From assembly GCA_963663995.1 (NCBI GenBank), contig OY760660.1, positions 900,001 through 932,000 of the forward strand: a stretch of 32,000 bases of DNA, given 5' to 3'. Each line of letters starts with the position of its first letter. Position 1 is the stretch's first letter. The notes beneath the pieces are model-generated. The model was not told the origin of the DNA, did not search any database, and worked only from the letters and a program-made list of their open reading frames with translations. Positions 5,416-31,946 of this stretch are shown one piece after another. The stretch is from Erysipelotrichaceae bacterium (GTDB lineage Bacteria; Bacillota_I; Bacilli_A; Erysipelotrichales; Erysipelotrichaceae). The translations under genes and the position numbers were made by a program.

Positions 5416-5430
5416 TTTTGGATCCTTTCT

Positions 5431-6219: not shown

Positions 6220-6285
6220 ATTTTAAGTGTGACATGAACTTTTCATAAGCGCAATGTTTAAGATGGATTATGCTAAACTACAAGT

Positions 6286-7233: not shown

Positions 7234-7236
7234 TCA

Positions 7237-8244: not shown

Positions 8245-8264
8245 TCGACTTCTCCTTATTAATC

Positions 8265-12489: not shown

Positions 12490-12611
12490 GTAAATTTAAT
12501 ACCTTTTCATATATTTAAGTAATTTACCTAAATTCTATCATTTATTACTGTATTCATCATGTTTCGTCTTTTTAGTATATTAAGATAAAACCAATATGCT
12601 AGTATTTAACT

Positions 12612-13697: not shown

Positions 13698-13701
13698 AAT
13701 C

Positions 13702-15832: not shown

Positions 15833-15842
15833 ATGACTTCCT

Positions 15843-16781: not shown

Positions 16782-16891
16782 TTTTTTGTCAAAGAAATAG
16801 ACGACTCTCCTTTATACATTACAAAACATCTTCAGAATTTTCATCATACACAAAAAGCATATCACAATGATTTTAAATGTTGATTTCAATT

Positions 16892-16900
16892 AGTATAGCA
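16892..16900 (-). promoter_or_regulatory. Candidate extended -10 promoter element (TGCTATACT) for the GT2-DegT transcription unit
   Basis: The reverse complement of 16892-16900 reads TGCTATACT (TGnTATAcT), about 110 nt upstream of the GT2 start. Sequence pattern only. Confidence 0.25.
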
Positions 16901-17212
16901 TCACATTTTCTTTAGATAATTATCTCTTATTAGAATTTTTAGATTATTATATATGATTTTTTATCAATATGTTTCTAAAAGTAAGTTTAATTTTAAAATA
17001 AAAATTCGAAAATCAGTTTCTATTGATTTGATTTTAAGTCTGTGTGATTGTCTTTATTTTATTTAGATATTTACTTTGTTACGCTTCAACAATTCTTTCT
17101 ATATTATTAATGGCTCATTATCATGCTTGTGTATTTCAAAATCAATATCATAAATTGCATTAGATAACTATTAATCGCTTAAGTGTTATAGTTTAATTAT
17201 GCAATTAAGGAA

Positions 17213-18661
17213 TTATATAAATTCAAATCTAGCATAAGCTTTTATCTCTTCATAGAATTGATTTCGTTTAACTTTATAACTTGTATGGTAAGGCATTTCT
17301 TCAAGAACGGCTAATACAGTAGGTAATTTAAAAGTTGCAACTTTATTATGTAAAAATGATCGTACTTCATTTAAACTCATTGTTTCATTTTCTTTTAGAG
17401 TCACAGCACATGCGACTTCATCAAATCCGTTTTTGTTTGTATAAGGAAAAACAACCACTTCATTTATTTTACTAAAATGACTAAGTATGGCTTCAATTTC
17501 AAACGGTGATACTTTTTCACCACCACGATTTATCATTTCTTTTTTTCGACCAATCAATATTAAATAACCATTTTCGTCTATGTAGCCTAAATCACCTGTT
17601 AAAAACCATCCATCATTAAAGTTTTCAATAGACTCATGATGCATATATTCACCAATAACAGTCGGACCACTTACACATACTTCCCCATCCTCAATTTTAT
17701 AGGGTAAATAGACTTTTCCTACACTCCCTTTTATCGCTTTACATTGATAAGTTGTTGATATAATTCCAGTCTCTGTTAAACCATATGAATTAACCACTTC
17801 TGCATTTAAACGCTTTGAAAGGTTTGTAAGTATCGCATCATTGATCGCTGAACCAATGGTTAATAGATAACCATTTTGTTGTTCAATAAATATATCTTCT
17901 CGATTCAAATAGTCATTTAAATATGTCCATACAGCTGGTGGACCAGAAATATAGGTGACCGATTTCAGTTTTAAATAGTGAATAATCGCAGATGGATTAA
18001 AATAATTCAATAATATAACTTCCCCCATATTTGCGATGACTCTAATACTTGATGTAATTGTTAAAACACGTGACATTTTAGCGAGTTGAATATATCGTGT
18101 TTGATCATTGAAATCGACAAATTGATCTCTCGCAAGATAAGCCCTATAGTTAACTTCAAATATTTTAGGTTTACTGGTCGTTCCACTTGTTTGAATGACA
18201 TATGAAATTTGTGTCTCACTCTTTTGATACTTACATGTACAGTCTTTAATTTTCTCAAAATGATATCCATTCGCATGAAATAAATAAAAACCTACGTTAG
18301 ACTCATTCACAGCCCTGACAATAGGATGTGTCAATGAATCACATAACACAAAATCAACCTCAGCATTTATTAATGTACTTTTGTATTTTTCTTCAAAAAA
18401 ATCATAGTCTTCAAAAATAAGTGTTTGTCTTTCGACTAAAACAAAACTTAAAATTAAATAATCCAGTGGATTTGCGACACAAAGTAAAAAACGCGTATTC
18501 TGATCAAATGGTTTTAGAAACTTTTCTACGATCTCTATACGCTCATATAATTCTCTATAGTTAATCGATTGACCATTGATAATACTTATCGCATTTTTAT
18601 CTATATAGTAATGATAATTATCCTTAAACTGCTTTAAAAAGCTTTGATTATTTATCTTCAT
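17213..18661 (-). CDS. ANL-superfamily adenylate-forming enzyme (acyl-CoA synthetase / carrier-protein ligase-like)
   Basis: 482 aa. VIQTSGTTSKPKIF (A3/P-loop motif with G->S deviation), NSYGLTETG (A5), TGDLGYIDENGYLILIGRKKEMINRGGEKVSPFEIE (A7-A8) and a C-terminal SYKVKR (A10 lysine). Confidence 0.85.
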   Translation of the reverse strand: MKINNQSFLKQFKDNYHYYIDKNAISIINGQSINYRELYERIEIVEKFLKPFDQNTRFLLCVANPLDYLILSFVLVERQTLIFEDYDFFEEKYKSTLINAEVDFVLCDSLTHPIVRAVNESNVGFYLFHANGYHFEKIKDCTCKYQKSETQISYVIQTSGTTSKPKIFEVNYRAYLARDQFVDFNDQTRYIQLAKMSRVLTITSSIRVIANMGEVILLNYFNPSAIIHYLKLKSVTYISGPPAVWTYLNDYLNREDIFIEQQNGYLLTIGSAINDAILTNLSKRLNAEVVNSYGLTETGIISTTYQCKAIKGSVGKVYLPYKIEDGEVCVSGPTVIGEYMHHESIENFNDGWFLTGDLGYIDENGYLILIGRKKEMINRGGEKVSPFEIEAILSHFSKINEVVVFPYTNKNGFDEVACAVTLKENETMSLNEVRSFLHNKVATFKLPTVLAVLEEMPYHTSYKVKRNQFYEEIKAYARFEFI

Positions 18662-18711: not shown

Positions 18712-18757
18712 TAAAAACCCTATAAAGCAAATCTGATTTAGATCTAACTCTATAGGG
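18712..18757 (-). terminator. Rho-independent terminator after ChW paralog 1
   Basis: CCCTATA (18718-18724) pairs with TATAGGG (18751-18757). On the minus strand the hairpin is followed by TTTTTAT (A-run 18713-18717 on plus). It lies 22 nt after the stop. The loop is long (26 nt). Confidence 0.45.
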
Positions 18758-18778
18758 TACATAAAACTTATAATAAAT

Positions 18779-20188
18779 CTATTGTGGATGACTTGATCCA
18801 ATCTCTAATCTATTAAACTCATTGTAAGTAAAAGTATCATCATTAACGTTGTATGATACATTGCCAATCATCCAATACCAACCTAATTTTTCATCTAATA
18901 AATCATAATCACTAAAGTTTGGTATATCTTGTGCAAGATATACTTTATCATCTAATTCAAAATCACTTCCATAACAGATATATAATTTATCATCAGCCTT
19001 TAATATATTCATCGAAGCACTTAAATCACCAAAATTATTAAAGTAATCAGAGGGTAAATAATAGAAATAGATGAGTGAATCATTAAAGGGTGAATCCTGT
19101 AATCCACTTAAATCTACATTTACTGTGATTTCATTACCCCAATAACCATATGGACTATATGGCGTTTCACTTTCAACTTCTAAACTATAATATACTCCTT
19201 CACCTTCAACATAGATTCTCATATCTTCACTTGGCACATATAAATATATTTGATTAGATAATATACTTGGACAAGTATAAGAACTTACATCCTCAAGAGT
19301 CACATTACTCATACTTGCTTGCACATATAATTTCTGTACAATCTCTACTCTATAAGCTGTTAAGCGTGAACCAATCGATCCAGCTGTTTGACCATCATAG
19401 ACATATCCCCACCATTCACCTTCAACTTGTGGTTGAATTTGAACACTGTATTGAGGTAAATCAATAAGTCTTGCTTCTAAGGCTTCAATCACAGAACCAC
19501 TTGATCCTAGATTTGCTCTATTACGTGCCCAATCAGTCCAGCCCACATTTCTGATGTATGCTCTATATTCAATAGACCCACTATCAGCACTGATTAAATT
19601 CATAGAAACAGAATCTATTGAACCAGTTCCTTGTGTTTCACCATTATGACGAAGTACTTGATTTACTCCTCCCACACTTGATTTATACTCAACACCTATC
19701 TCATCCACTTGTACTCTAAAACCTGTAATTGGATAAGCACTATTTAATTGACCTGAAGTAGAACCATTACTTTGCCACGTACCCCAACCTAATCCTTTTC
19801 GATAGGATTGGTAATAAACATTCGCATTTGGAAAGTCTTTCAGTTGGATTTGTAATCCAAGTAGAGCTTCATTATTATTTGAAGCGGTTTCCCAAGTGCT
19901 TAACCATTCACTCCAACCTGATGTTGTATAAACTCTGTACTCTATGCCTGCATTATACGGACCATCGACGAGATGTAATTCTAAACTGTCTAAAGGTTCA
20001 CCACCTTCAGTTCCTGCTAATGCTCCACCATAAGCAAAATCCCCTAGAACACTTTCATTTCCTGCCTGATAGCCAACATTAACATGATAATAATCTGTTG
20101 CTTGTACAGGTACTAATATGAAAAGAGTCATCAATATGACTAACACTAACATCTTACAAAAATTAAACATGTTTCCCCCTACACTCAT
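18779..20188 (-). CDS. Secreted ChW-repeat protein, paralog 1 (signal peptide + six ChW-like repeats + unique ~180-aa C-terminal domain)
   Basis: Repeats of the form IEYRAYIRNVGWTDWARNRANLGSSGSVIEALEARLIDLP fit the clostridial hydrophobic-W (ChW) pattern (Y-x-x-h-h-x-x-x-GW..W..nG...G..G....hEahxhxL). The signal peptide ends VPVQA/TDYY. The likely true start is the second in-frame ATG (about 20170, Met7). It has AGGGGG about 5 nt upstream and gives a signal peptide of the same length as the two paralogs. Confidence 0.75.
   Translation of the reverse strand: MSVGGNMFNFCKMLVLVILMTLFILVPVQATDYYHVNVGYQAGNESVLGDFAYGGALAGTEGGEPLDSLELHLVDGPYNAGIEYRVYTTSGWSEWLSTWETASNNNEALLGLQIQLKDFPNANVYYQSYRKGLGWGTWQSNGSTSGQLNSAYPITGFRVQVDEIGVEYKSSVGGVNQVLRHNGETQGTGSIDSVSMNLISADSGSIEYRAYIRNVGWTDWARNRANLGSSGSVIEALEARLIDLPQYSVQIQPQVEGEWWGYVYDGQTAGSIGSRLTAYRVEIVQKLYVQASMSNVTLEDVSSYTCPSILSNQIYLYVPSEDMRIYVEGEGVYYSLEVESETPYSPYGYWGNEITVNVDLSGLQDSPFNDSLIYFYYLPSDYFNNFGDLSASMNILKADDKLYICYGSDFELDDKVYLAQDIPNFSDYDLLDEKLGWYWMIGNVSYNVNDDTFTYNEFNRLEIGSSHPQ
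19335..20117 (-). repeat. Dispersed direct repeat copy 1 (~780 bp; ChW-module coding DNA)
   Basis: Aligns base-for-base by eye with 31063-31845 and 28992-29772, roughly 80-90% identical. Exact shared runs with copy 3 include a 34-mer, GCTTCAATCACAGAACCACTTGATCCTAGATTTG (19482-19515 = 31210-31243), and a 29-mer, TCTACTCTATAAGCTGTTAAGCGTGAACC. Confidence 0.85.
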
Positions 20189-20297
20189 TTAAATATATTA
20201 AGTTATTTTTATTTTATAAAAAATAAATAGAATTGGGTAGAAACTGATAGTGTGCATTTTTTGCTTTTGCATCATGTATTTAATTCAATCTAGTGAT

Positions 20298-20325
20298 TAA
20301 AAAACTCATCCTTGCGAATGAGTTC
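20298..20325 (-). terminator. Rho-independent terminator after the aspartate kinase gene
   Basis: On the minus strand: AACTCAT-tcgcaagg-ATGAGTT followed by TTTTT (plus strand 20299-20324), starting 9 nt after the TAA at 20334-20336. Confidence 0.6.
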
Positions 20326-20333
20326 ATAATCAT

Positions 20334-21641
20334 TTATCCAATAAACTGTTCATATAACACATGTAAGCTATCTTCAAAGTCTTTATTATCAACACCGACT
20401 AAAATACTAATTTCATCTGTCCCTTGGGCAATCGATCGAATATTAATATTACTCTCACCAAGTGCACTAAATATTTTTGCTGATACACCAGCTTGAGTTT
20501 TCATTCTTCGACCTACACAGGTAATTAACGCTAATTCATCTTCAATGTTTAAGCGTTCAGGTTGAATCTTATGTTCAATTAACTGAATCAATTTCTCTAA
20601 ATTGTTTTTGAGATTACTGGATTTAACCGTAATCGTAAAACTATCAATCCCTTTAGTGAGCAGTTCAATCGGTAAATGCATATACTCAAAGATCTCTAAG
20701 ACTTCTCTAAAGACTCTTGGTGATTTAGAAATGTATTCTTTGTGAATCGATAAAACTGTAAAATCTTTTAGTCCACTCACCCCAGTAATAAATTGTTGAG
20801 TAACTTCTTCTTGTGGAAGTGTTTCTAAAATAATCGTACCTGGATGATCAGGTTCATTGGTATTACGAATATTTAAAGGGATGTTTTTTCGTTTTACTGG
20901 CATCATTGCTTCTTCATGAATGACATTTGCCCCCATAAAAGCGAGTTCCCTAAGTTCTGCATATGTCATTTTCTCAATCGATTTAGCGTAATGTACAATG
21001 CGCGGATCAGCCATTAAAACACCTGATACATCGGTCCAGTTTTCATAAACATCTGAGTCTAAAGCAGCTGAAACAAGTGCTCCGGTAATATCACTACCCC
21101 CACGACCTAAAACTTTAATTTCACCTTTTAAATTAGATCCATAAAAACCAGGAATCACACAAGGTCCAACTTGATCATAGGTATCTTTAATTAAGTTAAA
21201 GGTTGCTTGTTGATTAATACTACTATCATCATTCAATTTAATAATGTCTTTTGCATCCACAAACGGAATGTTTAAATAACGCGCTAAGATTTGTGCATTT
21301 GTTTTCTCCCCAATAGAAACAAGTTCATCAATCGTTGTATTTTTAGATAAATGTTCTTTAAAGTTCTGTAAATCATCACTCACTTCAAGTGCACACTCAG
21401 TTTGTATTTCTCCAAAGCGTTTAATGATTTCATCAAAACTTTGGCTATAATCTTGATCACTTTGTAAAGCATCATAGGTCATGTATAAAAGATCAGTCAT
21501 CTTTGTTTGATGTAGTGCATCCTTACCAGGCGCACTAACCACAATCACTTTACGATCTTGATTTGATTCAATAATTTTTTTAATTTTATAGTACTGGCTA
21601 GCATTTGCTAAAGATGTACCACCAAATTTACAAACGATCAT
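20334..21641 (-). CDS. Aspartate kinase (monofunctional, with C-terminal ACT-type regulatory region)
   Basis: 435 aa. MIVCKFGGTSLANA (kinase N-terminus), VVSAPGK, GRGGSDITGALVSAALDSDVYENWTDVSGVLMADPRIV. Starts 1 nt after the hom stop. Confidence 0.9.
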   Translation of the reverse strand: MIVCKFGGTSLANASQYYKIKKIIESNQDRKVIVVSAPGKDALHQTKMTDLLYMTYDALQSDQDYSQSFDEIIKRFGEIQTECALEVSDDLQNFKEHLSKNTTIDELVSIGEKTNAQILARYLNIPFVDAKDIIKLNDDSSINQQATFNLIKDTYDQVGPCVIPGFYGSNLKGEIKVLGRGGSDITGALVSAALDSDVYENWTDVSGVLMADPRIVHYAKSIEKMTYAELRELAFMGANVIHEEAMMPVKRKNIPLNIRNTNEPDHPGTIILETLPQEEVTQQFITGVSGLKDFTVLSIHKEYISKSPRVFREVLEIFEYMHLPIELLTKGIDSFTITVKSSNLKNNLEKLIQLIEHKIQPERLNIEDELALITCVGRRMKTQAGVSAKIFSALGESNINIRSIAQGTDEISILVGVDNKDFEDSLHVLYEQFIG

Positions 21642-21642
21642 C

Positions 21643-22800
21643 TTACATTACCCTCGCAAAGAAGAGTTGACCACTCTCTCTTAATAATTGTAGTGCTTTA
21701 TGGACTTCAAAAGAAGAGATAGACTTCGTTAAAAAGTATTGTTTATCTTCAACTTGCCATTTTTTATCAATCCATTCATCATGAGCTAAATCTAAATCAG
21801 CTGATAAACGGATAAAATATTTACCTTCTAATTCTTCATTCTTAGCAGCTTTATGAACGGTTGTCTCTGGCAACATTTCTCTTTGTCCTGCCCGAGTGTA
21901 AAAGAGATCTCTTAAAACATTGGTCGCAGTTGGTTCTCCCCCTGCTCCTTGACCTGATAAATAGACAAGATTACCACGTTCTGGTGTAATCACCGCAATA
22001 TTATAGTTTTGAAGGATATTCGCTTCAGCACTATGTTCTTTCACTAAAGTTGGTTCAACCGTCATATGAAGATGTTTCTTTTGTTTTTCACCTTTGGCAA
22101 TCAATCTTACTCGATAGCCTAATTTCTTAATTTCAGTCACATCTTCTGATTGAATGTGACGAATACCTTCACACAATATACTTTCTTGATCAACCCACGT
22201 ATTTAAACCAACCGCGATTGCTAAACGAATTTTATATAAAGTATCCATTCCATCAATATCACTGCTAGGATCTGCTTCAGCATAACCTAACTTTTGAGCT
22301 TGTTTTAAAGCTTGTTTAAAATCAATTCCATTTGTCTCCATTTCATCCAAAATATAATTACAGGTTCCATTTAAAATACCAGAAATGGCTTGAATCCCTA
22401 AAGGTTTATTTTCTAAAATCGTTGGTTGAATGGGAATACCACCCCCACAAGCTGCAGATAAAAGTAAACCCACTTTTTTCTTACGTGCAAGTGCTGAGAG
22501 TTCATCGCCATAAACATTAAATAAAGCTTTATTCGCTGATATAACATGTTTACCAGAATTTAAGGCTGCTCGAATATACTCATAGGCAGGATGAATCCCA
22601 CCAATCAGTTCAACAACGACATCAATATCATCATTTTCTAATATTTCTTGAGGATCATCGGTCATGAAATCTTTAGTGACTTTCCCTCGACGTCTTAAAA
22701 CACGGACAACATTAATCCCTGATTTTACGTGATCCGTTTTATTTAATAATTTTAATAACGCTCTTGCGACAGTACCGTAGCCTAAAACACCAACATTCAT
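21643..22800 (-). CDS. hom: Homoserine dehydrogenase
   Basis: 385 aa. NVGVLGYGTVARALLKLL (NAD-binding), VVELIGG, HVISANKAL, GILNGTCNYILDEM, LGYAEADPSSDIDGMDT, all classic Hom motifs. The C-terminal tail is short, so a canonical ACT domain is doubtful. Confidence 0.9.
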   Translation of the reverse strand: MNVGVLGYGTVARALLKLLNKTDHVKSGINVVRVLRRRGKVTKDFMTDDPQEILENDDIDVVVELIGGIHPAYEYIRAALNSGKHVISANKALFNVYGDELSALARKKKVGLLLSAACGGGIPIQPTILENKPLGIQAISGILNGTCNYILDEMETNGIDFKQALKQAQKLGYAEADPSSDIDGMDTLYKIRLAIAVGLNTWVDQESILCEGIRHIQSEDVTEIKKLGYRVRLIAKGEKQKKHLHMTVEPTLVKEHSAEANILQNYNIAVITPERGNLVYLSGQGAGGEPTATNVLRDLFYTRAGQREMLPETTVHKAAKNEELEGKYFIRLSADLDLAHDEWIDKKWQVEDKQYFLTKSISSFEVHKALQLLRESGQLFFARVM

Positions 22801-22821
22801 AACTTTTCTCTGTTTCTATTT

Positions 22822-22839
22822 TGAATACACTTGTATTCA
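22822..22839. promoter_or_regulatory. Perfect palindrome in the divergent hom / thrC promoter region (candidate operator)
   Basis: TGAATAC-ACTT-GTATTCA (7-bp arms, 4-bp spacer), centred in the 87-bp hom-thrC intergenic region. No binding factor is known from the sequence. Confidence 0.25.
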
Positions 22840-22887
22840 CATTGAAAACAGTGTAACCTATGTACAAACGAATTTCAAGGTGAACAT

Positions 22888-24309
22888 ATGAACTATTTTA
22901 GTACTCGATCTCAAGATTTACAACTGACATCTAAAGAAGCCATCCATCAAGGTTTATCCAGTGATGGTGGTCTTTTTGTTCCAATACAATTTCCACAGTT
23001 TAAATTAGATGATTTAATTCAAGGAAACTATGCAGATATTCAAAAAAGAATCCTTAAAGCTTTCTTTGATGATTACAGTAATGAAGAACTAGAAAAAGCG
23101 GTTGATCATCAAGTATCGCGCTTTAATCATCCTTTAATTACACCCTTAAAAAAGGTGGGTAAACCTTTTGTCTTAGAACTCTTTCATGGTCCTAGTGCGG
23201 CCTTTAAAGATGTCGCATTACAGATACTTCCTGAACTGCTTAAACCCGCTAAGGCAACCACGATTCTAACAGCTACTTCAGGTGATACAGGTTCAGCGGC
23301 ACTAGAAGGCTTTAGAGATAAAGAAAACATCGATATCATGGTTTATTATCCTACGGTTGGGATTTCCGATATTCAACGCAAACAAATGACTTGTGTTGAT
23401 TCAGCTAATACCCATGTTTATGGAATTAAAGGAAACTTTGACGATGCGCAAAGAGCAGTTAAAGAACTCTTTCAAAGCAATCAAGACAAGTCTTTATCTT
23501 CAGCTAACTCGATTAATATTGGAAGACTCGTACCGCAAATTGCTTATTATGTTTACGCCTATAAACAACTGATTGAACAAAAAGCTCTATCACTGGGTGA
23601 AGAAATGGTTGTATCAGTGCCTACGGGTAACTTTGGTAATATCTTGGCTGCTTATTATGCTAAAAAAATTGGATGTCCAATTAAACACTTTATCTGTGCC
23701 TCAAATGAGAATGATGTATTAACCGAAGTGATTAAAACAGGAACTTATCATTTAAATAGAGACTTCATGACAACCACTTCTCCAAGTATGGATATTTTAA
23801 TATCTTCAAACTTTGAAAGACTCTTATATGACTTCAGTAAAGATACACAACAAGTATCAACCTATATGAGTGATCTAAAAGAAAAAGGTTCATATACTTT
23901 AAAGGATGCTGAGTTTAAAGAACTAAGTAACTTATTTAGTGCTCAATCAATCAATCAAAAAGAAGTAAATCATACCATTGAAGTCACCTATCAAAATACT
24001 AAAGAACTTCTTGATCCGCATACTGCGATTGCGATGCATGCTGGTTATCAATATAATCAAAAAAATCCAAAGGATGTCGTAATTATTGCCGCAACTGCTT
24101 CCCCCTATAAATTCCCAAAAACAGTCCTTAAAGCACTTAAACAAGACATTCCAAATAATGACTTTGAAGCGATGGGAAAACTCTATGATTTAACGCAAGT
24201 TGAAATACCAGCTTTCTTAAAAGAACTTAAAGATAAAAAGGAAATTCATACAACAATCATTGAAACAAGTGACATCAATGATTCCTTTAATAAGGTCTAC
24301 CATGATTAA
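22888..24309 (+). CDS. thrC: Threonine synthase (long form)
   Basis: 473 aa. MNYFSTRS start, LELFHGPSAAFKDVALQ (PLP-lysine motif), TATSGDTGSAA, VPTGNFGNILA. RBS AAGGTGA lies 5 nt upstream. Confidence 0.92.
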   Translation: MNYFSTRSQDLQLTSKEAIHQGLSSDGGLFVPIQFPQFKLDDLIQGNYADIQKRILKAFFDDYSNEELEKAVDHQVSRFNHPLITPLKKVGKPFVLELFHGPSAAFKDVALQILPELLKPAKATTILTATSGDTGSAALEGFRDKENIDIMVYYPTVGISDIQRKQMTCVDSANTHVYGIKGNFDDAQRAVKELFQSNQDKSLSSANSINIGRLVPQIAYYVYAYKQLIEQKALSLGEEMVVSVPTGNFGNILAAYYAKKIGCPIKHFICASNENDVLTEVIKTGTYHLNRDFMTTTSPSMDILISSNFERLLYDFSKDTQQVSTYMSDLKEKGSYTLKDAEFKELSNLFSAQSINQKEVNHTIEVTYQNTKELLDPHTAIAMHAGYQYNQKNPKDVVIIAATASPYKFPKTVLKALKQDIPNNDFEAMGKLYDLTQVEIPAFLKELKDKKEIHTTIIETSDINDSFNKVYHD

Positions 24310-25159
24310 AATTAGAGTCCCTGCTACATCCGCTAATATTGGCTCTGGTTTTGATGAACTCGGTTTAGCTGTACAACTCTATGCTTATGTTTCCTTTGAG
24401 TTTGCCCCAGAATATACTTACGAAGGCTTAGAAGTCCGTTATCAAAAAGATAACCTGATTAAAGAAGCATATGAATATACATGTATTCAAGAAAACTTTG
24501 AAATCAAACCTTTAGCCATTCATTTAAGTTCCGATATACCTATTGCCCGTGGCTTAGGTTCAAGTTCAAGTTTAATCGTAGCCGGTGTATCAGCTGCCTT
24601 TTTACTGAACACTCAAAAACTAGATAAAGACTTAGTCTTAAAACATGCGGTTGCTTTAGAAGGTCATCCCGATAATGTCGCACCTGCCATTTATGGGGGA
24701 CTAATTCACTCCATTAAAGAAAATGGTGAGTATACCATTAAAAATCTAGACTTAAATAAAGATCTATTTTTTACATTCCTAATTCCAGACTTTGAACTAT
24801 CAACTAAACTTGCACGCTCTGTCCTACCTCAAAGCTATTCACAAGCCATACTAGATAGTCATCAATCTAAACTAAATCATTTAATACAAGGCTTAAAAAG
24901 TGGTGATATGAATTTAATTGAAGATGGATGTGATGATGTGATTCATCAACCATACCGTTTTCCTTTAATTAAAGATGTAAGCCTCATTAAAGAAAAACTA
25001 AACCTACAAAAACCATCAGCTCTTTTCTTATCTGGTGCTGGTCCTACTTTAGGCATTATCACTAAAGAAAAACTAAATATTGATTTAAATCAAACTGAAG
25101 CTGATTGGTCAGTAAATCCCTTACTCATCGATCATGAGGGAGTTGTTTTATATGAGTAA
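24302..25159 (+). CDS. thrB: Homoserine kinase
   Basis: MIKIRVPATSANIGSGFDELG (GHMP kinase N-terminus), PIARGLGSSSSLIVAG (motif 2) and HPDNVAPAIYGG. I place the start at ATG 24302, which overlaps the thrC stop (cATGATTAA), rather than at the track's 24260. The extra 14 residues are not ThrB-like. Confidence 0.9.
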   Translation: MIKIRVPATSANIGSGFDELGLAVQLYAYVSFEFAPEYTYEGLEVRYQKDNLIKEAYEYTCIQENFEIKPLAIHLSSDIPIARGLGSSSSLIVAGVSAAFLLNTQKLDKDLVLKHAVALEGHPDNVAPAIYGGLIHSIKENGEYTIKNLDLNKDLFFTFLIPDFELSTKLARSVLPQSYSQAILDSHQSKLNHLIQGLKSGDMNLIEDGCDDVIHQPYRFPLIKDVSLIKEKLNLQKPSALFLSGAGPTLGIITKEKLNIDLNQTEADWSVNPLLIDHEGVVLYE

Positions 25160-25589
25160 GCAATACGTTATCGTTAATAAAAAAATATTGCCTGATAACT
25201 TTGAAAAAGTCATAGAAGCAAAAGCCTTATTGGATTCACATAGTGCTAAAGATGTATCCGATGCCTGTAAAAAAGTAGGTTTGTCCCGTTCTAGTTATTA
25301 CAAACTTAAAGATATGGTCTTTAGTGATGAAGATGAGAAAACGACTCGTAAAGTCGTGATCTCTTGTAGTCTAAATCACACCCAAGGCATATTATCTAAT
25401 CTACTTCATCATATTGCTGCACATCATGCGAATGTCTTAACGATTACCCAAAACTATCCACTACAAAATCATGCCTATGTGGTTATTATGTTAGATATCT
25501 CAGATATGTTAATATCTGTTGAAAATCTGATTCAAGAACTGAGTGGCATTGATAATGTCACAACCGTAAAACTGATATCCATTGAATAA
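25152..25589 (+). CDS. Stand-alone ACT-domain protein (UPF0735/PheB-like)
   Basis: MSKQYVIVNKKILPDNFEKVIEAKALL...LSRSSYYKLKD (N-terminal HTH-like part) followed by an ACT-like beta-alpha-beta-beta-alpha-beta region (VVISCSLNHTQGILSNLLHHIAAHHANVLTITQ). The start is set at ATG 25152 (GAGGGAG about 10 nt upstream), which overlaps the thrB stop. Confidence 0.7.
   Translation: MSKQYVIVNKKILPDNFEKVIEAKALLDSHSAKDVSDACKKVGLSRSSYYKLKDMVFSDEDEKTTRKVVISCSLNHTQGILSNLLHHIAAHHANVLTITQNYPLQNHAYVVIMLDISDMLISVENLIQELSGIDNVTTVKLISIE
25566..25589 (+). repeat. 24-bp perfect direct repeat, copy 1 (last 7 codons + stop of the ACT gene)
   Basis: GTAAAACTGATATCCATTGAATAA is identical to 28357-28380. The flanking bases differ on both sides. 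Confidence 0.95.
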
Positions 25590-25620
25590 AAGAGCCAATC
25601 TTATCGATTCGCTCTTTTTT
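25589..25620 (+). terminator. Hairpin/T-run after the thrC-thrB-ACT operon (overlaps the 3' end of the convergent YjbR-like gene)
   Basis: AAAGAGC (25589-25595), a 15-nt loop, then GCTCTTT (25611-17) followed by TTT. Confidence 0.45.
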
Positions 25621-25969
25621 GTGTTAATCCATAACTCATATCAACTAATGATAATAATTCTTCTTTATCAAAGGAACTATTCAAAATAATACTAATCCAG
25701 TGTTCCTTATTCATGTGATAAGCCGGAAGTACACCTTCTTGTCCTCTTAGAAAATAATTGAGTTCAGGTTCAACCTTTAAATTGATGATTTCAGTGATGC
25801 CTTCGTCATCAAGATTTAAACGATGATTGTTTACATTCATGATTAATGCATACCATTTACCATTTTTATGTCTTAAAACAGCTGAATCAAAATCTTCATC
25901 AAAAGGAAAATCAGCTTTCGTCTCATACTTATTTAAAACATAGTTAAATATTTCTTCACGTGTAATCAC
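25601..25969 (-). CDS. MmcQ/YjbR-family protein (putative DNA-binding)
   Basis: 122 aa. REEIFNYVLNKY...DFPF...AVLRHKNGKWYALIMNV...LKVEPELNYFLRGQEGVLPAYHMNKEHWISIIL...LVDMSYGLT follows the YjbR family pattern closely. Confidence 0.8.
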   Translation of the reverse strand: MITREEIFNYVLNKYETKADFPFDEDFDSAVLRHKNGKWYALIMNVNNHRLNLDDEGITEIINLKVEPELNYFLRGQEGVLPAYHMNKEHWISIILNSSFDKEELLSLVDMSYGLTQKRANR

Positions 25970-25997
25970 AAGTTGTCTCTATTTAATTATAAATGAT

Positions 25998-26585
25998 TTA
26001 ATAGAGTCCACCTAATAATGCAGTAATCAAATCATCATTATCATTTGCATTGATTTTCCAACCACCATCATCAGTCATATAGACATCAAATGTATTAACG
26101 TTTGACTTTGAAGTTTCATTGATCGCTTCATCTAAAAGTTCAACATACTTTTGATTCATCTCATCATCACTCATCTCTTCACCACTTGTCGTGTATTCAA
26201 TTCCAAAGGTCATCCATTTCGTCATCCAAGCACTCATGATTTCACCCAATGAATATGACGTAATCGTAAGTTCTATAGTGGCTTCATTACCGTTTGTTTC
26301 AACATCACCAATGGTATAATCAAAATCTTGCACAAGTCCTAAGATTTTTAGTGTAAATGCATCATCAGTTATATTGCTTGGTGCCATTGCTGATAAATCC
26401 AAGTAAAATGGCAAAGACATATCAAAGTATTCTTCATTATAGAGTGTACTTGCATCAATCGATTCAGCCGATTGTACGGATTGCAGATAAGATTCAAGTG
26501 TTGCTTCAGGTTGTGGACCAGAAGAACATGCAGACAACATAAACATCATATTAAACGCTAATAAACTTTTAATCCATTTCTTCAT
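25998..26585 (-). CDS. Acidic lipoprotein of unknown function (possibly NTF2-like/DUF4878-like)
   Basis: 195 aa. Signal peptide with lipobox MLSAC. The mature part has about 40 D/E against about 5 K and no R. GGAGG lies upstream of the ATG. Confidence 0.6.
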   Translation of the reverse strand: MKKWIKSLLAFNMMFMLSACSSGPQPEATLESYLQSVQSAESIDASTLYNEEYFDMSLPFYLDLSAMAPSNITDDAFTLKILGLVQDFDYTIGDVETNGNEATIELTITSYSLGEIMSAWMTKWMTFGIEYTTSGEEMSDDEMNQKYVELLDEAINETSKSNVNTFDVYMTDDGGWKINANDNDDLITALLGGLY

Positions 26586-26602
26586 ACTATTTACCTCCTT
26601 TC

Positions 26603-27382
26603 TTATTTATTGATTCTATTTAAAGTGTATTCCGTTTGCGTGATATAGGAATAGATCTTAATCGTGTCTAAATCGACAATTAAATACCGATAGCTTAAAT
26701 CCAAAAATTCACTATCTTCCATTAAAATTACGCCATAACTTGCATCTATCCCTGAATTGTCATCTCCATCCAATGTCGCTTGAAAGGATACACGATCAGG
26801 ATTAGCTGAATCAAAAGTTGGTATATTCGTAATCAAACTAGTGTTAAGAGCATATAGAGAAACATCATCATTGTGAAAGACATCAGACCCTAGAATTTGA
26901 GGCAAGAAGACATTTTGAATCAAAACATCATCTTTTATTGTCGAAGGATAGATATCAAAGAAAGCCTGAACATCATAAAACATCGAATAGTCATTTGAAA
27001 TATCAAAATCGATAACTAAACCCCGATCAGGAACAGGAATGGAAACAATCAATTGAATACCATCCAACATGATTTGAATATCATTTGTAAATGTATCAGA
27101 TAAATCTAATGATTGATTAAACTCAAACGATGCGTTTTCTAAGTCACCCAACTCATAGCTTTGCATACCTAAGATATAATGACATTCACTTTCTAAAGTG
27201 ATGATTTCAGGAAATACGTCAGCATCAATTTCATGATCACAAGAGCTAATATTCTCTGAGTCAATCATGCTTCGATAGGTATCAAAAGCACCTTGATCAT
27301 CATAATTTTCTGTTGAACAACTAGAAATAACTAAAGTTAAGCCTATCAACAAAAGCATTATGTTTAATTGTTTATATTTCAT
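26603..27382 (-). CDS. Acidic lipoprotein of unknown function
   Basis: The track ORF extends to 27436, but MKYKQLNIMLLLIGLTLVISSCSTEN (Met19, 27382) is a canonical lipoprotein signal with lipobox VISSC. The mature protein is extremely D/E-rich. I recognised no domain. Confidence 0.55.
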   Translation of the reverse strand: MKYKQLNIMLLLIGLTLVISSCSTENYDDQGAFDTYRSMIDSENISSCDHEIDADVFPEIITLESECHYILGMQSYELGDLENASFEFNQSLDLSDTFTNDIQIMLDGIQLIVSIPVPDRGLVIDFDISNDYSMFYDVQAFFDIYPSTIKDDVLIQNVFLPQILGSDVFHNDDVSLYALNTSLITNIPTFDSANPDRVSFQATLDGDDNSGIDASYGVILMEDSEFLDLSYRYLIVDLDTIKIYSYITQTEYTLNRINK

Positions 27383-27522
27383 ATTAAATACAAGCCCCCT
27401 TTTCTTTAAACTACACCTTTTAAAGCATTGAAACAACTTTGTTAAAAATCATGATTCTTTAATAATATTTTGAATATAAACTTACTTATAATTTGTTGAA
27501 ATAATGCTTTTAATTATGGGAT

Positions 27523-28140
27523 TTATAATTTTAAAAAGACTAAATTCTCGAAATGGGCATTAAATAATTGAACAATGACTCCCACAAATGGCATTAAAAA
27601 GATAAAACTAAATACAATAATTTCACTTTTATTAAGCACTTTATAATATCTGTGAATCAAATAAAACATATAGGCATAATTCAAACCCAGAATAATATTG
27701 CTGAAATAACTAAATTGACTAGCATGGAAAATACCAGTTTGTGTATCAACCACAAAATATAGTGGGGTAAAGAAATTAATGATCAATATAAACAAAGTGA
27801 TAAAACTAGTATATTGGTAAAACTTGCATTTAATAATACGTTGTCTATTTTTATGAATCTTTAAATCAACATAGGATAAAAATAGTCCAGCCATAACAGG
27901 CGCAAGTATAAACAAAATAAAGTTACTGATATATTCAATAAGATATAAATATAAGACTGTATTTCCATCAAAGACCCAAGATACAACTTCACTAATAATA
28001 CCAATACCTGCAATAAAGCTGGTATAACGTAAAATCTGTTTAGTAAAGGTTTCAATCTTTGAAGCTCGTATATACACATAAAAAATGGATAAAATGATTA
28101 GACTGTAAATAGAGACCTGAAATTGTAAAAGAATATTCAT
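27523..28140 (-). CDS. Polytopic membrane protein (about 6 TM), unknown function; possibly the orphaned membrane module of a sensor
   Basis: 205 aa, almost entirely hydrophobic helices, with no soluble domain. It ends abruptly (..FNAHFENLVFLKL) with 86 bp of non-coding DNA downstream. Confidence 0.45.
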   Translation of the reverse strand: MNILLQFQVSIYSLIILSIFYVYIRASKIETFTKQILRYTSFIAGIGIISEVVSWVFDGNTVLYLYLIEYISNFILFILAPVMAGLFLSYVDLKIHKNRQRIIKCKFYQYTSFITLFILIINFFTPLYFVVDTQTGIFHASQFSYFSNIILGLNYAYMFYLIHRYYKVLNKSEIIVFSFIFLMPFVGVIVQLFNAHFENLVFLKL

Positions 28141-28254
28141 AAAACTCCTTGTTAAAATAATCGTAAATTTATCCTTTTATACCAAAATATGATCATATCT
28201 TATGAAAGAGTAATTGAAGAATAGTTCTTAAAATTCTTATTTATGCAAAAAAGG

Positions 28255-28380
28255 ATTGACTACCAATTTTGGATTTCAATCCTGCAAAATTTTAGTACAT
28301 TAGTATCTGTTAAAAATATCTTCCAAGAACTTACTATCATTAAGAGTATGACTCATGTAAAACTGATATCCATTGAATAA
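28255..28380 (+). pseudogene. Decayed fragment of a second copy of the ACT-domain gene 3' end
   Basis: The frame ending at TAA 28378-28380 reads ..IDYQFWISILQNFSTLVSVKNIFQELTIIKSMTHVKLISIE*, against the intact gene's ..ITQNYPLQNHAYVVIMLDISDMLISVENLIQELSGIDNVTTVKLISIE*. About 15 of the last 28 residues are identical and the last 24 nt are identical. An in-frame stop lies upstream at 28222, and there is no start or N-terminal part. Confidence 0.55.
28357..28380 (+). repeat. 24-bp perfect direct repeat, copy 2
   Basis: GTAAAACTGATATCCATTGAATAA is identical to 25566-25589. Confidence 0.95.
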
Positions 28381-28399
28381 TAATGAATATCAGTTTTTT
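28360..28399 (+). terminator. Rho-independent terminator built partly from the ACT gene-end repeat (likely the ancestral terminator of the thr operon)
   Basis: AAACTGATAT (28360-28369) pairs perfectly with ATATCAGTTT (28387-28396) across a 17-nt loop, followed by TTT. The 5' arm lies inside the 24-bp repeat. Copy 1 of the repeat lacks the 3' arm. Confidence 0.55.
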
Positions 28400-28471
28400 G
28401 AGTGTTAATTAAAATACCAAAACAAATCGATACCTCTATTGATACTTATAAATCAGTATTTTAAGAAATTA

Positions 28472-29827
28472 TCATCGTATGATTGCCCAACACACCATTT
28501 GATCTTGAACAGTTAATGTATAGTCACTAGAGTTTTCTGTTGTGGTTATAGTAAATACATGCCACTTACAAGATGGTTGATATAAACTTTCACCCAGATT
28601 ATATTGATTATCTGTTTGATCATCTAAACTTGTATTTTCACTTAATGTAATTGTTCTAATTAATTCATCACCTTGATAAACAGTTACAGTGTCACCGAAA
28701 TTGAATGCAGCTTCTCCTGCAATTGCGGCAATATACTCGTATGTCATTGTGTATTGATTATAATCAGAAACAATTATTGTTTCAGTAAATGGCCGATTTT
28801 CTTCACTGATGCCTAACTCATCACCTTGATGTTCCACATTTAGATAGAGTGTATTTTCAGCATCGATATATACTTGATCACGATATACTCCAAAATCCAT
28901 ATCACCATTTGAAGCCCAAATAAAATGTGACGTAAAAACAGTTGATGTATTTGTTGATGTCACAGTAGGTGCGGGCGCAACATAAACCCTTTGTACAATT
29001 TCTACTCTGTATCCTGTTAAGCGTGAGCCAATAGATCCAGCTGTTTGACCATCATAGACATATCCCCACCACTCACCTTCTACTTGTGGTTGTATTTGTA
29101 CACTATATTGTGGCAAATCAATTAAACGAGCCTCTAACGCTTCTACGATCGAACCACTTGAACCTAAAACTGAACCATTTCTTGCCCAGCTAGTCCAACC
29201 AGTATTTCTTAGATAAGCTCTATATTCTATTGATCCACCATCTCCACTAATAAGATTCATCGATACGGTTTCTAAAGAACCTGTACCCTGTGTTTCTCCA
29301 TTATGTCTTAGTACTTGTGTTATACCACCAATACTTGATTGATAATTAACACCAATTTCATCGACTTGTACTCTAAATCCTGTTATCGGATATGCTACAT
29401 TTAATTGACCTGATGTAGACCCATTAGATTGCCAAGTTCCCCAACCTAAGCCTTTACGATAGGTTTGATAATACACATTCGCATGTTCAAAGTCTTTAAG
29501 CTGTATTTGTAGACCTAGTATCTCTTCATTATTATAACTAGCTCTTTGCCAAGTACTAAACCACTCAGACCAACCTGAAACTGTATACACGCGATACTCT
29601 ACACCTGATGCATACGGACTATCTACTAAATGAATCTCTAGACTATCTAAAGGGTCTCCCCCTTCAGTCCCTGCTAGAGCTCCACCATAGGCAAAGTCTG
29701 TCCATACTCCATCATTTTGCCCTTGATAACCAACATTCACTTTATAGTAGTCAGTGGCTAATACAGGCATTTGCATCATGAAAAAAGCACATGATGCGAC
29801 TATAATCTTTATTATCTTTTTAAGCAT
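28472..29827 (-). CDS. Secreted ChW-repeat protein, paralog 2 (signal peptide + six ChW-like repeats + unique ~165-aa C-terminal domain)
   Basis: 451 aa. GGGAGG RBS 8 nt upstream. The signal peptide ends MPVLA/TDYY. Residues 24-285 are collinear with paralogs 1 and 3 (e.g. IEYRAYLRNTGWTSWARNGSVLGSSGSIVEALEARLIDLP). The C-terminus (APAPTVTSTNTST...QMVCWAIIR) is unrelated to the others. Confidence 0.75.
   Translation of the reverse strand: MLKKIIKIIVASCAFFMMQMPVLATDYYKVNVGYQGQNDGVWTDFAYGGALAGTEGGDPLDSLEIHLVDSPYASGVEYRVYTVSGWSEWFSTWQRASYNNEEILGLQIQLKDFEHANVYYQTYRKGLGWGTWQSNGSTSGQLNVAYPITGFRVQVDEIGVNYQSSIGGITQVLRHNGETQGTGSLETVSMNLISGDGGSIEYRAYLRNTGWTSWARNGSVLGSSGSIVEALEARLIDLPQYSVQIQPQVEGEWWGYVYDGQTAGSIGSRLTGYRVEIVQRVYVAPAPTVTSTNTSTVFTSHFIWASNGDMDFGVYRDQVYIDAENTLYLNVEHQGDELGISEENRPFTETIIVSDYNQYTMTYEYIAAIAGEAAFNFGDTVTVYQGDELIRTITLSENTSLDDQTDNQYNLGESLYQPSCKWHVFTITTTENSSDYTLTVQDQMVCWAIIR
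28992..29772 (-). repeat. Dispersed direct repeat copy 2 (~780 bp; ChW-module coding DNA)
   Basis: Collinear with 19335-20117 and 31063-31845. By eye it is the most diverged of the three copies, but it keeps exact runs such as CCATCATAGACATATCCCCACCA. Confidence 0.8.
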
Positions 29828-29880
29828 TTCAAATGCCTCCCTTTTACTAACATCGTAATGAGATGGTATTCAAAATTAAA

Positions 29881-29906
29881 TAGCACGAAAGTGCTAAATT
29901 ATAACA
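29881..29906 (-). promoter_or_regulatory. Candidate extended -10 promoter TGTTATAAT plus adjacent 6-bp stem-loop upstream of ChW paralog 2
   Basis: The reverse complement of 29898-29906 is TGTTATAAT (a perfect TGnTATAAT). Immediately downstream, TAGCAC-TTTC-GTGCTA (29881-29896) would sit at or near the 5' end of the transcript. The same 9-mer occurs upstream of paralog 3. Confidence 0.35.
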
Positions 29907-30045
29907 AAAATGATTGTATTCGAACTAAAAAGTATATTATCAACAAATACACATGAAACAGCTGTGTTATTATTCAAAACATTAACAAGAGCACAATATC
30001 CAAAACATAATGTGCTAATTAAATATATAAAAAAATAATATTAAA

Positions 30046-30095
30046 ACAAAAAAAAGCAAAGAACTCAGTTTTAAATTAACAAGCTTTGCTTTTTA
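30046..30095 (-). terminator. Bidirectional-type hairpin terminator after ChW paralog 3
   Basis: AGCAAAG (30055-30061) pairs with CTTTGCT (30084-30090), flanked by an A-run on the left and a T-run on the right. The loop is 22 nt. It lies about 40 nt after the stop at 30132. Confidence 0.4.
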
Positions 30096-30131
30096 TAAAT
30101 AATTAATATTCTAAAATTTCTAATTGATATT

Positions 30132-31898
30132 TTAACTAACAGGAGGTGTATATTGTAATATTGCATTTGAAGTTAATGCATCATTTACATTAAAATAAGC
30201 TCCATTTAATATACCTTCAACAACATACCCATTTATATTTCTAGCATATGAATTATCACTTGATTCATAGTCATAGATAATTGCAGTATGTGTAGGACTT
30301 GTACTAGTGACAGTGAATGTGCCTTCAATATAAGTTCCTTGCAACACTACAAATTCTTCATTATTAACTTTTGAATCTAAACTTAAAGTACTATAAGTAC
30401 TTGCAGTTGAAATACCTGTTGCTAAATCAACAACAGTAGTTACAGTCAACCCAGTAAATGTATCACTTTCATCAAATGTTACATCTGCAACCATTTTCGA
30501 ATTAGGATAACCATATGAAGCAACTCCATAATTGTTAAAAACAACAGGAGAATATCTTAATACTCTTGAACCGGTTAATCCATCTACCCACCAATTAATT
30601 TCAACATATTTCCCTGGCACTAAAATACTGCCTAAATAAGCAACCGAACTTGTTGTGTCATTGTCATATAAAATTAATGTATGAGTTCCATTTTCATAAG
30701 GAGATTGAAAACGAGTACCTGTAACAGTAAAAATTGTTGAACTTGAATCATACGTACCTGAGTATACTTCAAATTGATCAGGATCCACCATATCATCGCC
30801 ATAATTATTAAAAGTATCTGGTACAGATATTGTATTTGCAGGTACATATGCAGATAAGTATGCAGTACCTAAAAATCTATCATCAATTGTAATGTTTTTA
30901 TACGCTGGATCATCATCAAAATCGTCATCAGCATCAACACTATTTCTAATATCATATCCAAAACCTGTTACATTAGGTGTTGCATTTAATACAACATCAC
31001 TTACTTGAGGCTCTTCTTCTACAACAACAGTTGGAATAGCAGTTGGCGCAACAAAAACTCGTTGTACAATTTCTACTCTATAAGCTGTTAAGCGTGAACC
31101 CATTGATCCAGCTGTTTGGCCATCATAGACATATCCCCACCATTCTCCTTCTACTTGAGGTTGAATTTGAACACTGTATTGTGGTAAGTCAATCAGTCTT
31201 GCCTCTAATGCTTCAATCACAGAACCACTTGATCCTAGATTTGTACCATTTCGTGCCCAATCAGTCCATCCCTCATTTCTGAGGTATGCTCTATATTCAA
31301 TAGACCCATTATCTGCACTGATTAAACTCATCGATACTGTTTCTAAAGAGCCTGTTCCTTGTGTTTCTCCATTATGTCGTAATACTTGTGTTACTCCACC
31401 CACATTTGATTGATAGTTAACACCAATCTCATCAACTTGTACTCTAAAGCCTGTAATTGGATAAACTGAGTTTAATTGTCCTGAAGTCGCTCCATTACTC
31501 ACCCAGATACCCCAACCTAAACCTTTTCGATAGGATTGATAATAAACATTCGCATTAGGAAAGTCTTTAAGTTGGATTTGTAAACCAAGAATAGCTTCTG
31601 AGTTATTTGTTGCTGTTTCCCAGGTATTAAACCATTTAGACCAACCTGATGTTGTATAAACTCTATACTCAATACCTGATTCATAAGGACTATCAACTAA
31701 ATGAATCTCTAATGAATCAAGAGCAGCTCCGCCTTCAGTACCAGCCAATGCTCCACCATAAGCAAAGTCGCCTAGAACTCCCGCATTACCTGCTTGATAG
31801 CCAACATTAACATTATAATAATCTGTTGCTTGTACAGGTACTAATGCAAATGCTAATAAAAAGAAAGCAATAAACATTTTAAATATTTTATTAATCAT
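30132..31898 (-). CDS. Secreted ChW-repeat protein, paralog 3 (signal peptide + six ChW-like repeats + acidic linker + ~290-aa C-terminal region with an internal duplication)
   Basis: 588 aa. AGGAGG RBS 7 nt upstream. The signal peptide ends VPVQA/TDYY. Residues 24-285 are collinear with the paralogs. These are followed by the linker VVVEEEPQVSD...DADDDFDDD and two related ~75-130-aa units (FNNYG...FEVYSGTY...RYSP / FNNYG...FVVLQGTY...LQYTP). Confidence 0.75.
   Translation of the reverse strand: MINKIFKMFIAFFLLAFALVPVQATDYYNVNVGYQAGNAGVLGDFAYGGALAGTEGGAALDSLEIHLVDSPYESGIEYRVYTTSGWSKWFNTWETATNNSEAILGLQIQLKDFPNANVYYQSYRKGLGWGIWVSNGATSGQLNSVYPITGFRVQVDEIGVNYQSNVGGVTQVLRHNGETQGTGSLETVSMSLISADNGSIEYRAYLRNEGWTDWARNGTNLGSSGSVIEALEARLIDLPQYSVQIQPQVEGEWWGYVYDGQTAGSMGSRLTAYRVEIVQRVFVAPTAIPTVVVEEEPQVSDVVLNATPNVTGFGYDIRNSVDADDDFDDDPAYKNITIDDRFLGTAYLSAYVPANTISVPDTFNNYGDDMVDPDQFEVYSGTYDSSSTIFTVTGTRFQSPYENGTHTLILYDNDTTSSVAYLGSILVPGKYVEINWWVDGLTGSRVLRYSPVVFNNYGVASYGYPNSKMVADVTFDESDTFTGLTVTTVVDLATGISTASTYSTLSLDSKVNNEEFVVLQGTYIEGTFTVTSTSPTHTAIIYDYESSDNSYARNINGYVVEGILNGAYFNVNDALTSNAILQYTPPVS
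31063..31845 (-). repeat. Dispersed direct repeat copy 3 (~780 bp; ChW-module coding DNA)
   Basis: See copy 1. Same orientation as copies 1 and 2. Confidence 0.85.
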
Positions 31899-31937: not shown

Positions 31938-31946
31938 ATTATAACA
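31938..31946 (-). promoter_or_regulatory. Candidate extended -10 promoter TGTTATAAT upstream of ChW paralog 3
   Basis: The reverse complement of 31938-31946 is TGTTATAAT, about 40 nt upstream of the ATG. The 9-mer is identical to the one upstream of paralog 2. Confidence 0.35.

Follow-up and report, generated by a model that had tools for sequence, protein, structure and literature searches.

ChW-repeat surface proteins have been described from Clostridium acetobutylicum and other Firmicutes (Nolling 2001; Sullivan 2007, cited in PMC5817068), and the citing text attributes to the latter study the proposal that ChW repeats act as triplets. The autolysins of Enterococcus provide an example of ChW repeats combined with an enzyme (PMC8051824). 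ChW-type binding domains of lysins bind lactic-acid-bacterial surfaces and peptidoglycan (PMC10610939), and a ChW-containing anchor displays passenger proteins on Lactococcus (PMC6700490); a repeat-family survey of 2021 reported ChW without a structural match (PMC8078820). Here we analysed a 32,000-nt stretch of contig OY760660.1 from an Erysipelotrichaceae bacterium (the window), in which three genes on the minus strand, p1, p2 and p3, encode paralogous proteins composed of a leader, a module of six ChW repeats and a C-terminal region, or head. We consider it fairly probable that p1-p3 are Sec-exported, non-covalently wall-bound surface proteins which display adhesin-like heads.

In a three-way alignment, the proteins start with a variable hydrophobic leader, continue with a block of exactly 259 amino acids (aa) with zero indels, and lose all similarity a few residues past RVEIVQ. 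The N-termini are signal-peptide-like, with the putative cleavage site PVQA-TDYY in p1 and p3 and PVLA-TDYY in p2. An earlier note on this DNA, made from the letters of the sequence, had described three secreted paralogs with a shared six-repeat module, and the signal peptides, the 259-aa block and the alignment of its six units bear this out. The block is 82.6, 86.1 and 83.8% identical among the paralogs at the protein level and 76.7-84.0% at the DNA level, with the DNA differences mostly at third codon positions; the identity is thus high, as had been claimed, and slightly below the 85-90% then given. Exactly three copies and no fragments of the module were found in the window by tblastn (E 1e-146 to 1e-174).

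The Pfam ChW profile (PF07538 / IPR006637) matches three to four stretches of each protein and scores 28 bits for p1, 27.5 bits for p2 and 30.6 bits for p3, above its curated gathering cut-off of 22 bits, and it also exceeds the cut-off in relatives. This profile search settles in the affirmative the note's proposal that the module is ChW-like, to which the tandem GW repeats of about 40-50 aa and the triplet organisation also point. No Pfam match besides ChW was obtained for p1-p3 at E<=10, and none in NCBIfam. The six repeat units have a period of 40-44 aa, their first strands lying at mature residues 7, 51, 92, 135, 175 and 217 of the AlphaFold model, and follow the common pattern h-x-Y-x-x-h...GW..W...G...G..G..h-x-x-h-x-h-x-L. 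Repeats 2, 3, 5 and 6 contain the GW..W motif, whereas the degenerate repeats 1 and 4 do not but still align with the others and keep the strand pattern unchanged. Therefore, the W-rich and W-poor forms that had been noticed do exist, and in place of the strict alternation first described they are arranged as (poor, rich, rich) twice. In agreement with this, residues 6-131 of the module align with residues 134-253 (hhalign, E 1e-9), and on this self-alignment the module is a tandem duplication of a three-repeat unit, which agrees with the triplet proposal as it is cited in PMC5817068. A single-repeat hidden Markov model (HMM) derived from the family detected two to six copies in distant ChW proteins with no clear multiple-of-three signal; owing to its low sensitivity, this result was not used.

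The structure of mature p1 was modelled with AlphaFold2 from a 55-sequence alignment. The module model is all-beta, with a predicted local distance difference test (pLDDT) score mostly above 90. When the model was compared with the PDB by Foldseek, no match reached E<=1e-3 and the top 50 contained no propeller; a ChW profile search of the PDB sequences gave no relative, and whole p3 searched against the same sequences gave nothing. Among predicted viral structures, Foldseek returned five matches with E <=5e-4 and a probability of 1.0 each, namely a lysin, a PlyB-like endolysin, a lysozyme, a 'putative cytoplasmic protein' and one unnamed protein. Three of these matches extend over 137-153 columns with a root mean square deviation (rmsd) of 1.9-2.4 A, and two extend over 191-254 columns with an rmsd of 12-22 A. 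Because the lysin matches are tight over about 140 columns and poor over longer spans, the model argues for the triplet as the rigid unit and suggests that the two triplets do not form a single closed six-fold body. The closed propeller or barrel of six units which the earlier note had suggested is accordingly not favoured by the models, given the 3+3 duplication, the lack of a propeller match in the PDB and the poor superposition of the long lysin alignments. The note had also called for structure prediction of the module and heads followed by a Foldseek search; this yielded a confident model of the module and matches to predicted lysins, and no significant match in the PDB.

The C-terminal tails measure 180 aa in p1, 168 aa in p2 and 305 aa in p3. 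No significant similarity among them was found by BLASTP or profile-profile comparison, as had been expected of unrelated tails, and by these comparisons the three C-terminal regions of the window represent three distinct domain types without detectable mutual homology, which we call X (p1), Y (p2) and Z (p3). None of the three heads has a match in Pfam (E<=10), NCBIfam or the PDB sequences. Thus the description of the tails as domains of unknown fold holds as regards the PDB, and has to be amended for the tail of p3, which is not a single domain and consists of two copies of Z. Both copies match one and the same region of the Z heads encoded by a related metagenome-assembled genome (MAG, see below) in BLAST searches, and the second copy aligns with the Z profile (hhalign E 6e-15, probability 98%). 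The first copy, modelled with pLDDT 75-93 (50-83 for the second), can be aligned with the one head of each of 17 further members of the family, and also with the RTX proteins P0015 and P0016.

The Z domain comprises about 150-180 aa with the conserved motifs PDTF..GD..V...QFEVY.GTY...FTV and THT.ILYDN. In a database of 5.8 billion proteins, it was found without ChW repeats in P0015 (E 3.7e-16) and P0016 (E 6e-11), both of which carry HemolysinCabind repeats. In addition, tblastn (1e-26 to 4e-15) located Z in open reading frames (ORFs) of three metagenomic contigs, L013, L017 and L018, the ORFs being at least 1159 (L013), at least 2955 and at least 791 aa long; RTX repeats abound in two of these ORFs, the third showing one weak RTX match, and the L013 ORF also bears Cadherin_4 and Big_9 domains (bacterial cadherin-like and Ig-like). 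The weak top matches of the Z model in the PDB are cadherin tandem domains (Foldseek E 0.08-0.9, template modelling score about 0.1), and a search of the PDB sequences with the Z profile gave nothing. The D-rich motifs DDNPAG and LYDND of Z are suggestive only as to a cadherin-like fold, and no Pfam cadherin match was obtained. A 565-aa family member on contig L019 (2869-4563) has an insertion of about 100 aa in its Z head after THTLILYDND; therefore, the Z head tolerates large internal insertions.

Homologs of the X head form the C-termini of P0007, P0019, P0005, P0001, P0003, P0004, P0006, P0008 and P0127, and share the invariant positions C, D, C, G, W, W, N and P. When 1.84 billion representatives were searched exhaustively with the X profile (HMMER), only three real matches were retrieved, all belonging to this ChW family. 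P0128, which also scored (E 1e-14), was rejected as a relative of X, being a 907-aa translated tandem DNA repeat of about 15 identical 57-aa units. The X head was modelled with pLDDT 55-93. The Y head has only two relatives, an ortholog of p2 in the MAG (P0018, E 1e-39) and the terminal domain of a 758-aa paralog in the same genome (E 5e-5), and none were found in the JGI metagenomes.

With a single module sequence as query, 12 matches were obtained, and the profile search extended this to 185 ChW proteins. The proteins with a full module fall into 29 clusters, including the three from the window. All 29 have a leader (the module starting at residue 13-33), a module of 259-263 aa and one C-terminal region of 149-195 aa, the sole exception in the last respect being p3. 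Head classes were assigned among the full-length members by BLAST clustering of the C-terminal regions: X has six full-length members including p1, with four fragments in addition, Y has two (p2 and its MAG ortholog), another type, W, has two (P0021 and P0030), and the singleton head of P0025 is weakly X-like (hhalign E 4e-4, probability 37%). By eye, the 'VDLELY' strand pattern of the W head recalls pre-peptidase C-terminal (PPC) domains, with no significant Pfam match. A survey of 185,579 species, with one genome per species, found relatives in a single genome, the MAG Erysipelotrichaceae bacterium OY781039.1 (1.96 Mb). It encodes four members: the p2 ortholog P0018, a p3-like protein with one Z head, a protein of 758 aa in which Z and further sequence are followed by a Y-like terminal domain, and a protein of 631 aa with an FG-GAP repeat head (Pfam 58 bits). 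The last two widen the variety of heads by FG-GAP and by one Z+Y combination, and with Z, X, Y and W in the 29 clusters they confirm the earlier suggestion of a modular family with swappable heads.

The modules of the paralogs differ with a ratio of nonsynonymous to synonymous substitutions (dN/dS) of 0.10-0.17 (0.11 for p2 against both p1 and p3) at a dS of 0.56-1.2. These values indicate that the paralogs are old duplicates, conserved nearly intact by strong purifying selection, and did not arise by recent gene conversion. For the orthologs p2 and P0018, dN is 0.08 for the module (88% identity) and 0.52 for the head (about 45-46% identity), and the pair of p3 and the Z protein of the MAG shows the same trend. 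By this estimate, the rate of evolution of the heads is about six times that of the anchor.

Taken together, these features suggest the following model, in which wall binding, surface display and adhesin function are inferred. Signal peptidase I would cleave the exported proteins at PV(Q/L)A-TDYY. The two tandem ChW triplets would then bind the wall, either peptidoglycan or a wall-linked glycopolymer, and a short linker of the VAP..VVEEE type would project the head outward. The heads would be interchangeable, non-enzymatic and beta-rich, with the two-cysteine orphan X in p1, Y in p2 and two Z domains in p3, and would bind external ligands, resulting in adhesion or aggregation. ChW is the sole candidate anchor in these proteins. 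Beyond the leader, p1-p3 lack hydrophobic or transmembrane segments, an LPXTG-like motif and a hydrophobic tail at the C-terminus; no convincing lipobox was found in them, and the classical Gram-positive anchors (LPXTG, SLH, LysM, CWB2, choline-binding) are absent by a Pfam search at E<=10 and a motif check, as the earlier note had stated for the first four. The anchor role is suggested because distant ChW blocks are joined to wall enzymes and because ChW domains of lysins bind bacterial surfaces. The published binding data also make the note's remark that ChW repeats are functionally poorly understood partly outdated, since binding to surfaces and peptidoglycan has been demonstrated for ChW domains of lysins (PMC10610939, PMC6700490). 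For the heads, ligand binding is preferred over catalysis because they carry no catalytic signatures, Z is shared with giant RTX proteins and one head of the family consists of FG-GAP repeats.

Several points weigh against this reading. The heads have no recognisable fold (Foldseek against the PDB, E > 0.05), and it is only through the co-occurrence of domains that the term adhesin suggests itself. Localisation and wall binding of this ChW family are predictions from sequence, and a ChW ligand has been established for only a few lysin binding domains, whose assignments to the Pfam family are weak. The GW motif is missing from repeats 1 and 4. The leader of p2 contains a lipobox-like VASC at residues 10-13 (29788-29799, minus strand) which the MAG ortholog shares; this motif probably does not serve for lipidation, because the cleavage site PVLA-TDYY is conserved across the paralogs. 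The mature proteins are acidic (D+E 12-13%, K+R about 4.5%), a property that speaks neither for nor against the reading. Finally, the position of the head is occupied by enzymes in other ChW proteins, and an enzymatic activity that escaped detection is possible.

This last point leads to an alternative which we regard as unlikely, though one to be taken seriously, namely that p1-p3 are secreted wall-active enzymes or antibacterial effectors; ChW would then direct them to peptidoglycan, either the producer's own or that of competitors, and X, Y and Z would be unrecognised catalytic domains. The domains joined to ChW blocks in distant relatives include lysozyme, M23, CHAP, NlpC/P60, GH25, Amidase_2/3/5 and YkuD (L,D-transpeptidase). 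Among 86 more distant ChW proteins, 20 consist of a signal peptide, an N-terminal ChW block (usually about 275-325 residues) and a head of 124-294 aa, so that the N-terminal placement of the module, to which the earlier note had attached significance, is not unusual. The heads of these 20 proteins are usually a peptidoglycan hydrolase or a related enzyme, and the layout of a block of about six repeats followed by a head of about 125-180 aa recurs identically in distant proteins with enzymatic heads. The structural relatives of the module are (predicted) phage lysins, and two cysteines and an aspartate are invariant in X, which would also be in favour. However, no head matches Pfam, NCBIfam or the PDB even at E<=10, and peptidoglycan hydrolase signatures were not found in the heads, neither as a profile match nor as an invariant Cys-His or His-rich metal site; none of the invariant residues of X is a histidine, and Z shows no conserved nucleophile-histidine pattern. 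Moreover, Z occurs in giant RTX proteins beside cadherin-like and Ig-like domains, a context typical of adhesins, one MAG paralog bears FG-GAP repeats, which form a binding fold, and the fast divergence of the heads would be unusual for catalytic domains.

It is similarly improbable, in our view, that the ChW module is a lectin-like binder of foreign glycans, such as those of other bacteria, host mucin or dietary polymers, and that the proteins are released as binding or aggregation factors. The ligand is not known for most ChW proteins, as stated in PMC5817068, the ChW domains of phage lysins bind a broad range of species (PMC10610939), and p1-p3 have no second anchor that would retain them, all of which would be compatible with such a role. 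On the other hand, the strong purifying selection on the module, set against the fast evolution of the heads, fits a constant self-ligand better, and the genes adjoin wall-glycan and LytR-CpsA-Psr (LCP) genes. An origin of p1-p3 as prophage- or phage-derived lysis or receptor-binding genes, which could be proposed from the fact that the sole significant structural matches are phage lysins, is largely refuted and very improbable, given the signal peptides, the lack of a lysin catalytic domain, the housekeeping neighbours (threonine operon and glycan synthesis) with a position conserved in another genome, and the viral sequences, in which no family member was found among 2.9 million contigs and two distant ChW matches only among 50,697 phage records.

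The genomic setting agrees with the reading of p1-p3 as wall-bound surface proteins in that the genes of the family are located on the chromosome in syntenic positions. Those of the window flank a cluster of genes for aspartate kinase, homoserine dehydrogenase, threonine synthase and homoserine kinase, and on a 364-kb metagenome contig (L008) a tandem pair of ChW genes lies beside the same threonine cluster, directly after an LCP gene. The other side of p1 is occupied by a surface-glycan biosynthesis locus of about 16 kb (window positions 2314-18661), which encodes four GT2 and one GT1 glycosyltransferases, GDP-mannose 4,6-dehydratase, mannose-1-P guanylyltransferase (ManC), a DegT aminotransferase, two 'sugar-transfer associated' ATP-grasp enzymes, a fused ATP-grasp/epimerase, an AMP-binding enzyme and a polytopic membrane protein of 685 aa without a Pfam match. 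The glycan made by this adjoining locus may be the ChW ligand.

Two adjacent genes between the threonine cluster and p2 (25998-27436, minus strand) encode putative lipoproteins with the lipoboxes LSAC and ISSC; one has a weak DUF5105 match and the other no family. The p3-like gene of MAG OY781039.1 is separated from the p2-like gene by a fragment of a transposase-like ORF (L005, 6900-7394), and a Transposase_mut fragment precedes the P0005 gene on L001-L004, so that mobile-element remnants recur beside family members.

The coordinates of the features are collected in Table 1. The sequences of p1 and p2 are identical to the database proteins P0017 and P0002, respectively. Translation of p1 probably begins at the second ATG (20170) and not at the ATG at 20188, because the Shine-Dalgarno sequence AGGGGGA precedes the former and the leader then has 24 aa as in p2 and p3; the protein would thus have 463 aa. 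The public record P0017 keeps the longer form. p2 is preceded by AAGGGAGG, a good match to a Shine-Dalgarno sequence, and p3 by AGGAGG. Read directly from the sequence, the same 9-mer, TGTTATAAT, stands 5' of both p2 and p3 as an extended -10 element; a consensus promoter scan of the window returned 55 sites against 73 expected from shuffles, that is, no excess. Terminator-like hairpins follow p1 and, more weakly, p3, and none was found 3' of p2. RNA folding also revealed a strong hairpin with a U-run on the upstream side of p1 (z -5.3). A small hairpin in the 5' leader of p2 (29881-29896) was labelled a terminator by the scanner. With a Shine-Dalgarno sequence and promoter-like elements for every gene, and terminator-like hairpins after two of them, each of p1-p3 therefore appears to carry expression signals of its own.

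Table 1. Positions in the window of the three ChW genes, their parts and their putative expression signals.
Feature	Position	Strand	Description
p1 gene	18779..20188	-	469 aa as the longest ORF; leader, six-ChW module, X-type head
p1 module	19322..20098	-	259 aa, six ChW repeats as two triplets; tblastn 86% identity to p3 module
p1 linker and X-type head	18782..19321	-	invariant C..P, Y-x-C-[FY]-G and W-x-W motifs
Terminator-like hairpin and U-run	18717..18758	-	3' of p1; hairpin about -20 kcal/mol; z -3.3 (124-nt stretch)
p2 gene	28472..29827	-	451 aa; leader, six-ChW module, Y-type head
p2 module	28979..29755	-	259 aa, six ChW repeats; tblastn 84% identity to p3 module
p2 linker and Y-type head	28475..28978	-	168 aa
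Extended -10 element	29898..29906	-	5' of p2
p3 gene	30132..31898	-	588 aa; leader, six-ChW module, two Z-type head domains
p3 module	31050..31826	-	259 aa, six ChW repeats
p3 first Z domain	30540..30992	-	residues about 303-453
p3 second Z core	30141..30476	-	residues about 475-586
Extended -10 element	31938..31946	-	5' of p3
Weaker terminator-like hairpin	30044..30095	-	3' of p3; -10.9 kcal/mol, z -1.8, followed by U8

Compared with the described systems, p1-p3 resemble the ChW family of C. acetobutylicum in being secreted proteins with tandem GW repeats of about 40-50 aa, diverse partner domains and a presumed attachment to the wall or surface. In contrast to that family, they have a fixed and conserved unit of six repeats straight after the signal peptide, the GW motif has been lost from the first repeat of each triplet, and the partners X, Y and Z are uncharacterised. 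The domain order, the sizes and the length of the ChW block are those of ChW-enzyme autolysins and lysins (M23, NlpC/P60, CHAP, YkuD, GH25, amidase); however, the latter carry a recognisable peptidoglycan-active head, whereas orphan beta domains of non-enzymatic appearance stand in this position in p1-p3. With the ChW domains of phage endolysins, such as Lactobacillus casei phage lysins/CL1 and lactococcal AM12, the module shares the predicted fold over one triplet, and those domains have been found experimentally to bind walls or peptidoglycan (PMC10610939, PMC6700490). The endolysin module differs in that it is C-terminal, has fewer repeats and no signal peptide, and acts from outside on its targets, and the sequence identity is only 13-23%.

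A further likeness is that with the giant RTX adhesins secreted by type I systems, including Marinomonas MpIBP and Vibrio FrhA, as Z is homologous to a domain found among RTX repeats. Z has no significant match to the solved domains of MpIBP and FrhA (Foldseek E about 0.6), and export and anchoring also differ, p3 relying on Sec and ChW according to our prediction and the RTX adhesins on the type I secretion system and an outer-membrane plug. Nevertheless, Z links Firmicute surface proteins to RTX adhesins, which hints that these proteins may act as adhesins in an uncultured Erysipelotrichaceae lineage of the gut or the environment. To our knowledge, ChW is among the last widespread wall-associated repeats of Gram-positive bacteria that have neither a solved structure nor a ligand on which there is general agreement, and the compact, extremely conserved and confidently modelled block of six repeats is well suited to structure determination and wall-binding assays; the heads add two or three undescribed domain families. 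As a tentative possibility that we hold to be rather less likely than not to apply in full, the family may be a cassette-like display system, with a constant double-triplet ChW anchor, of a fold not yet represented among solved structures, to which ligand-binding heads that are quickly exchanged and evolve quickly are attached, Z being an adhesin module not described before, probably shared by horizontal transfer with giant Gram-negative RTX adhesins, and X and Y being new folds restricted to the lineage. The overall architecture is already known from other ChW proteins; what is new in comparison is a narrow, conserved sub-family with orphan heads and the link between Z and the RTX adhesins.

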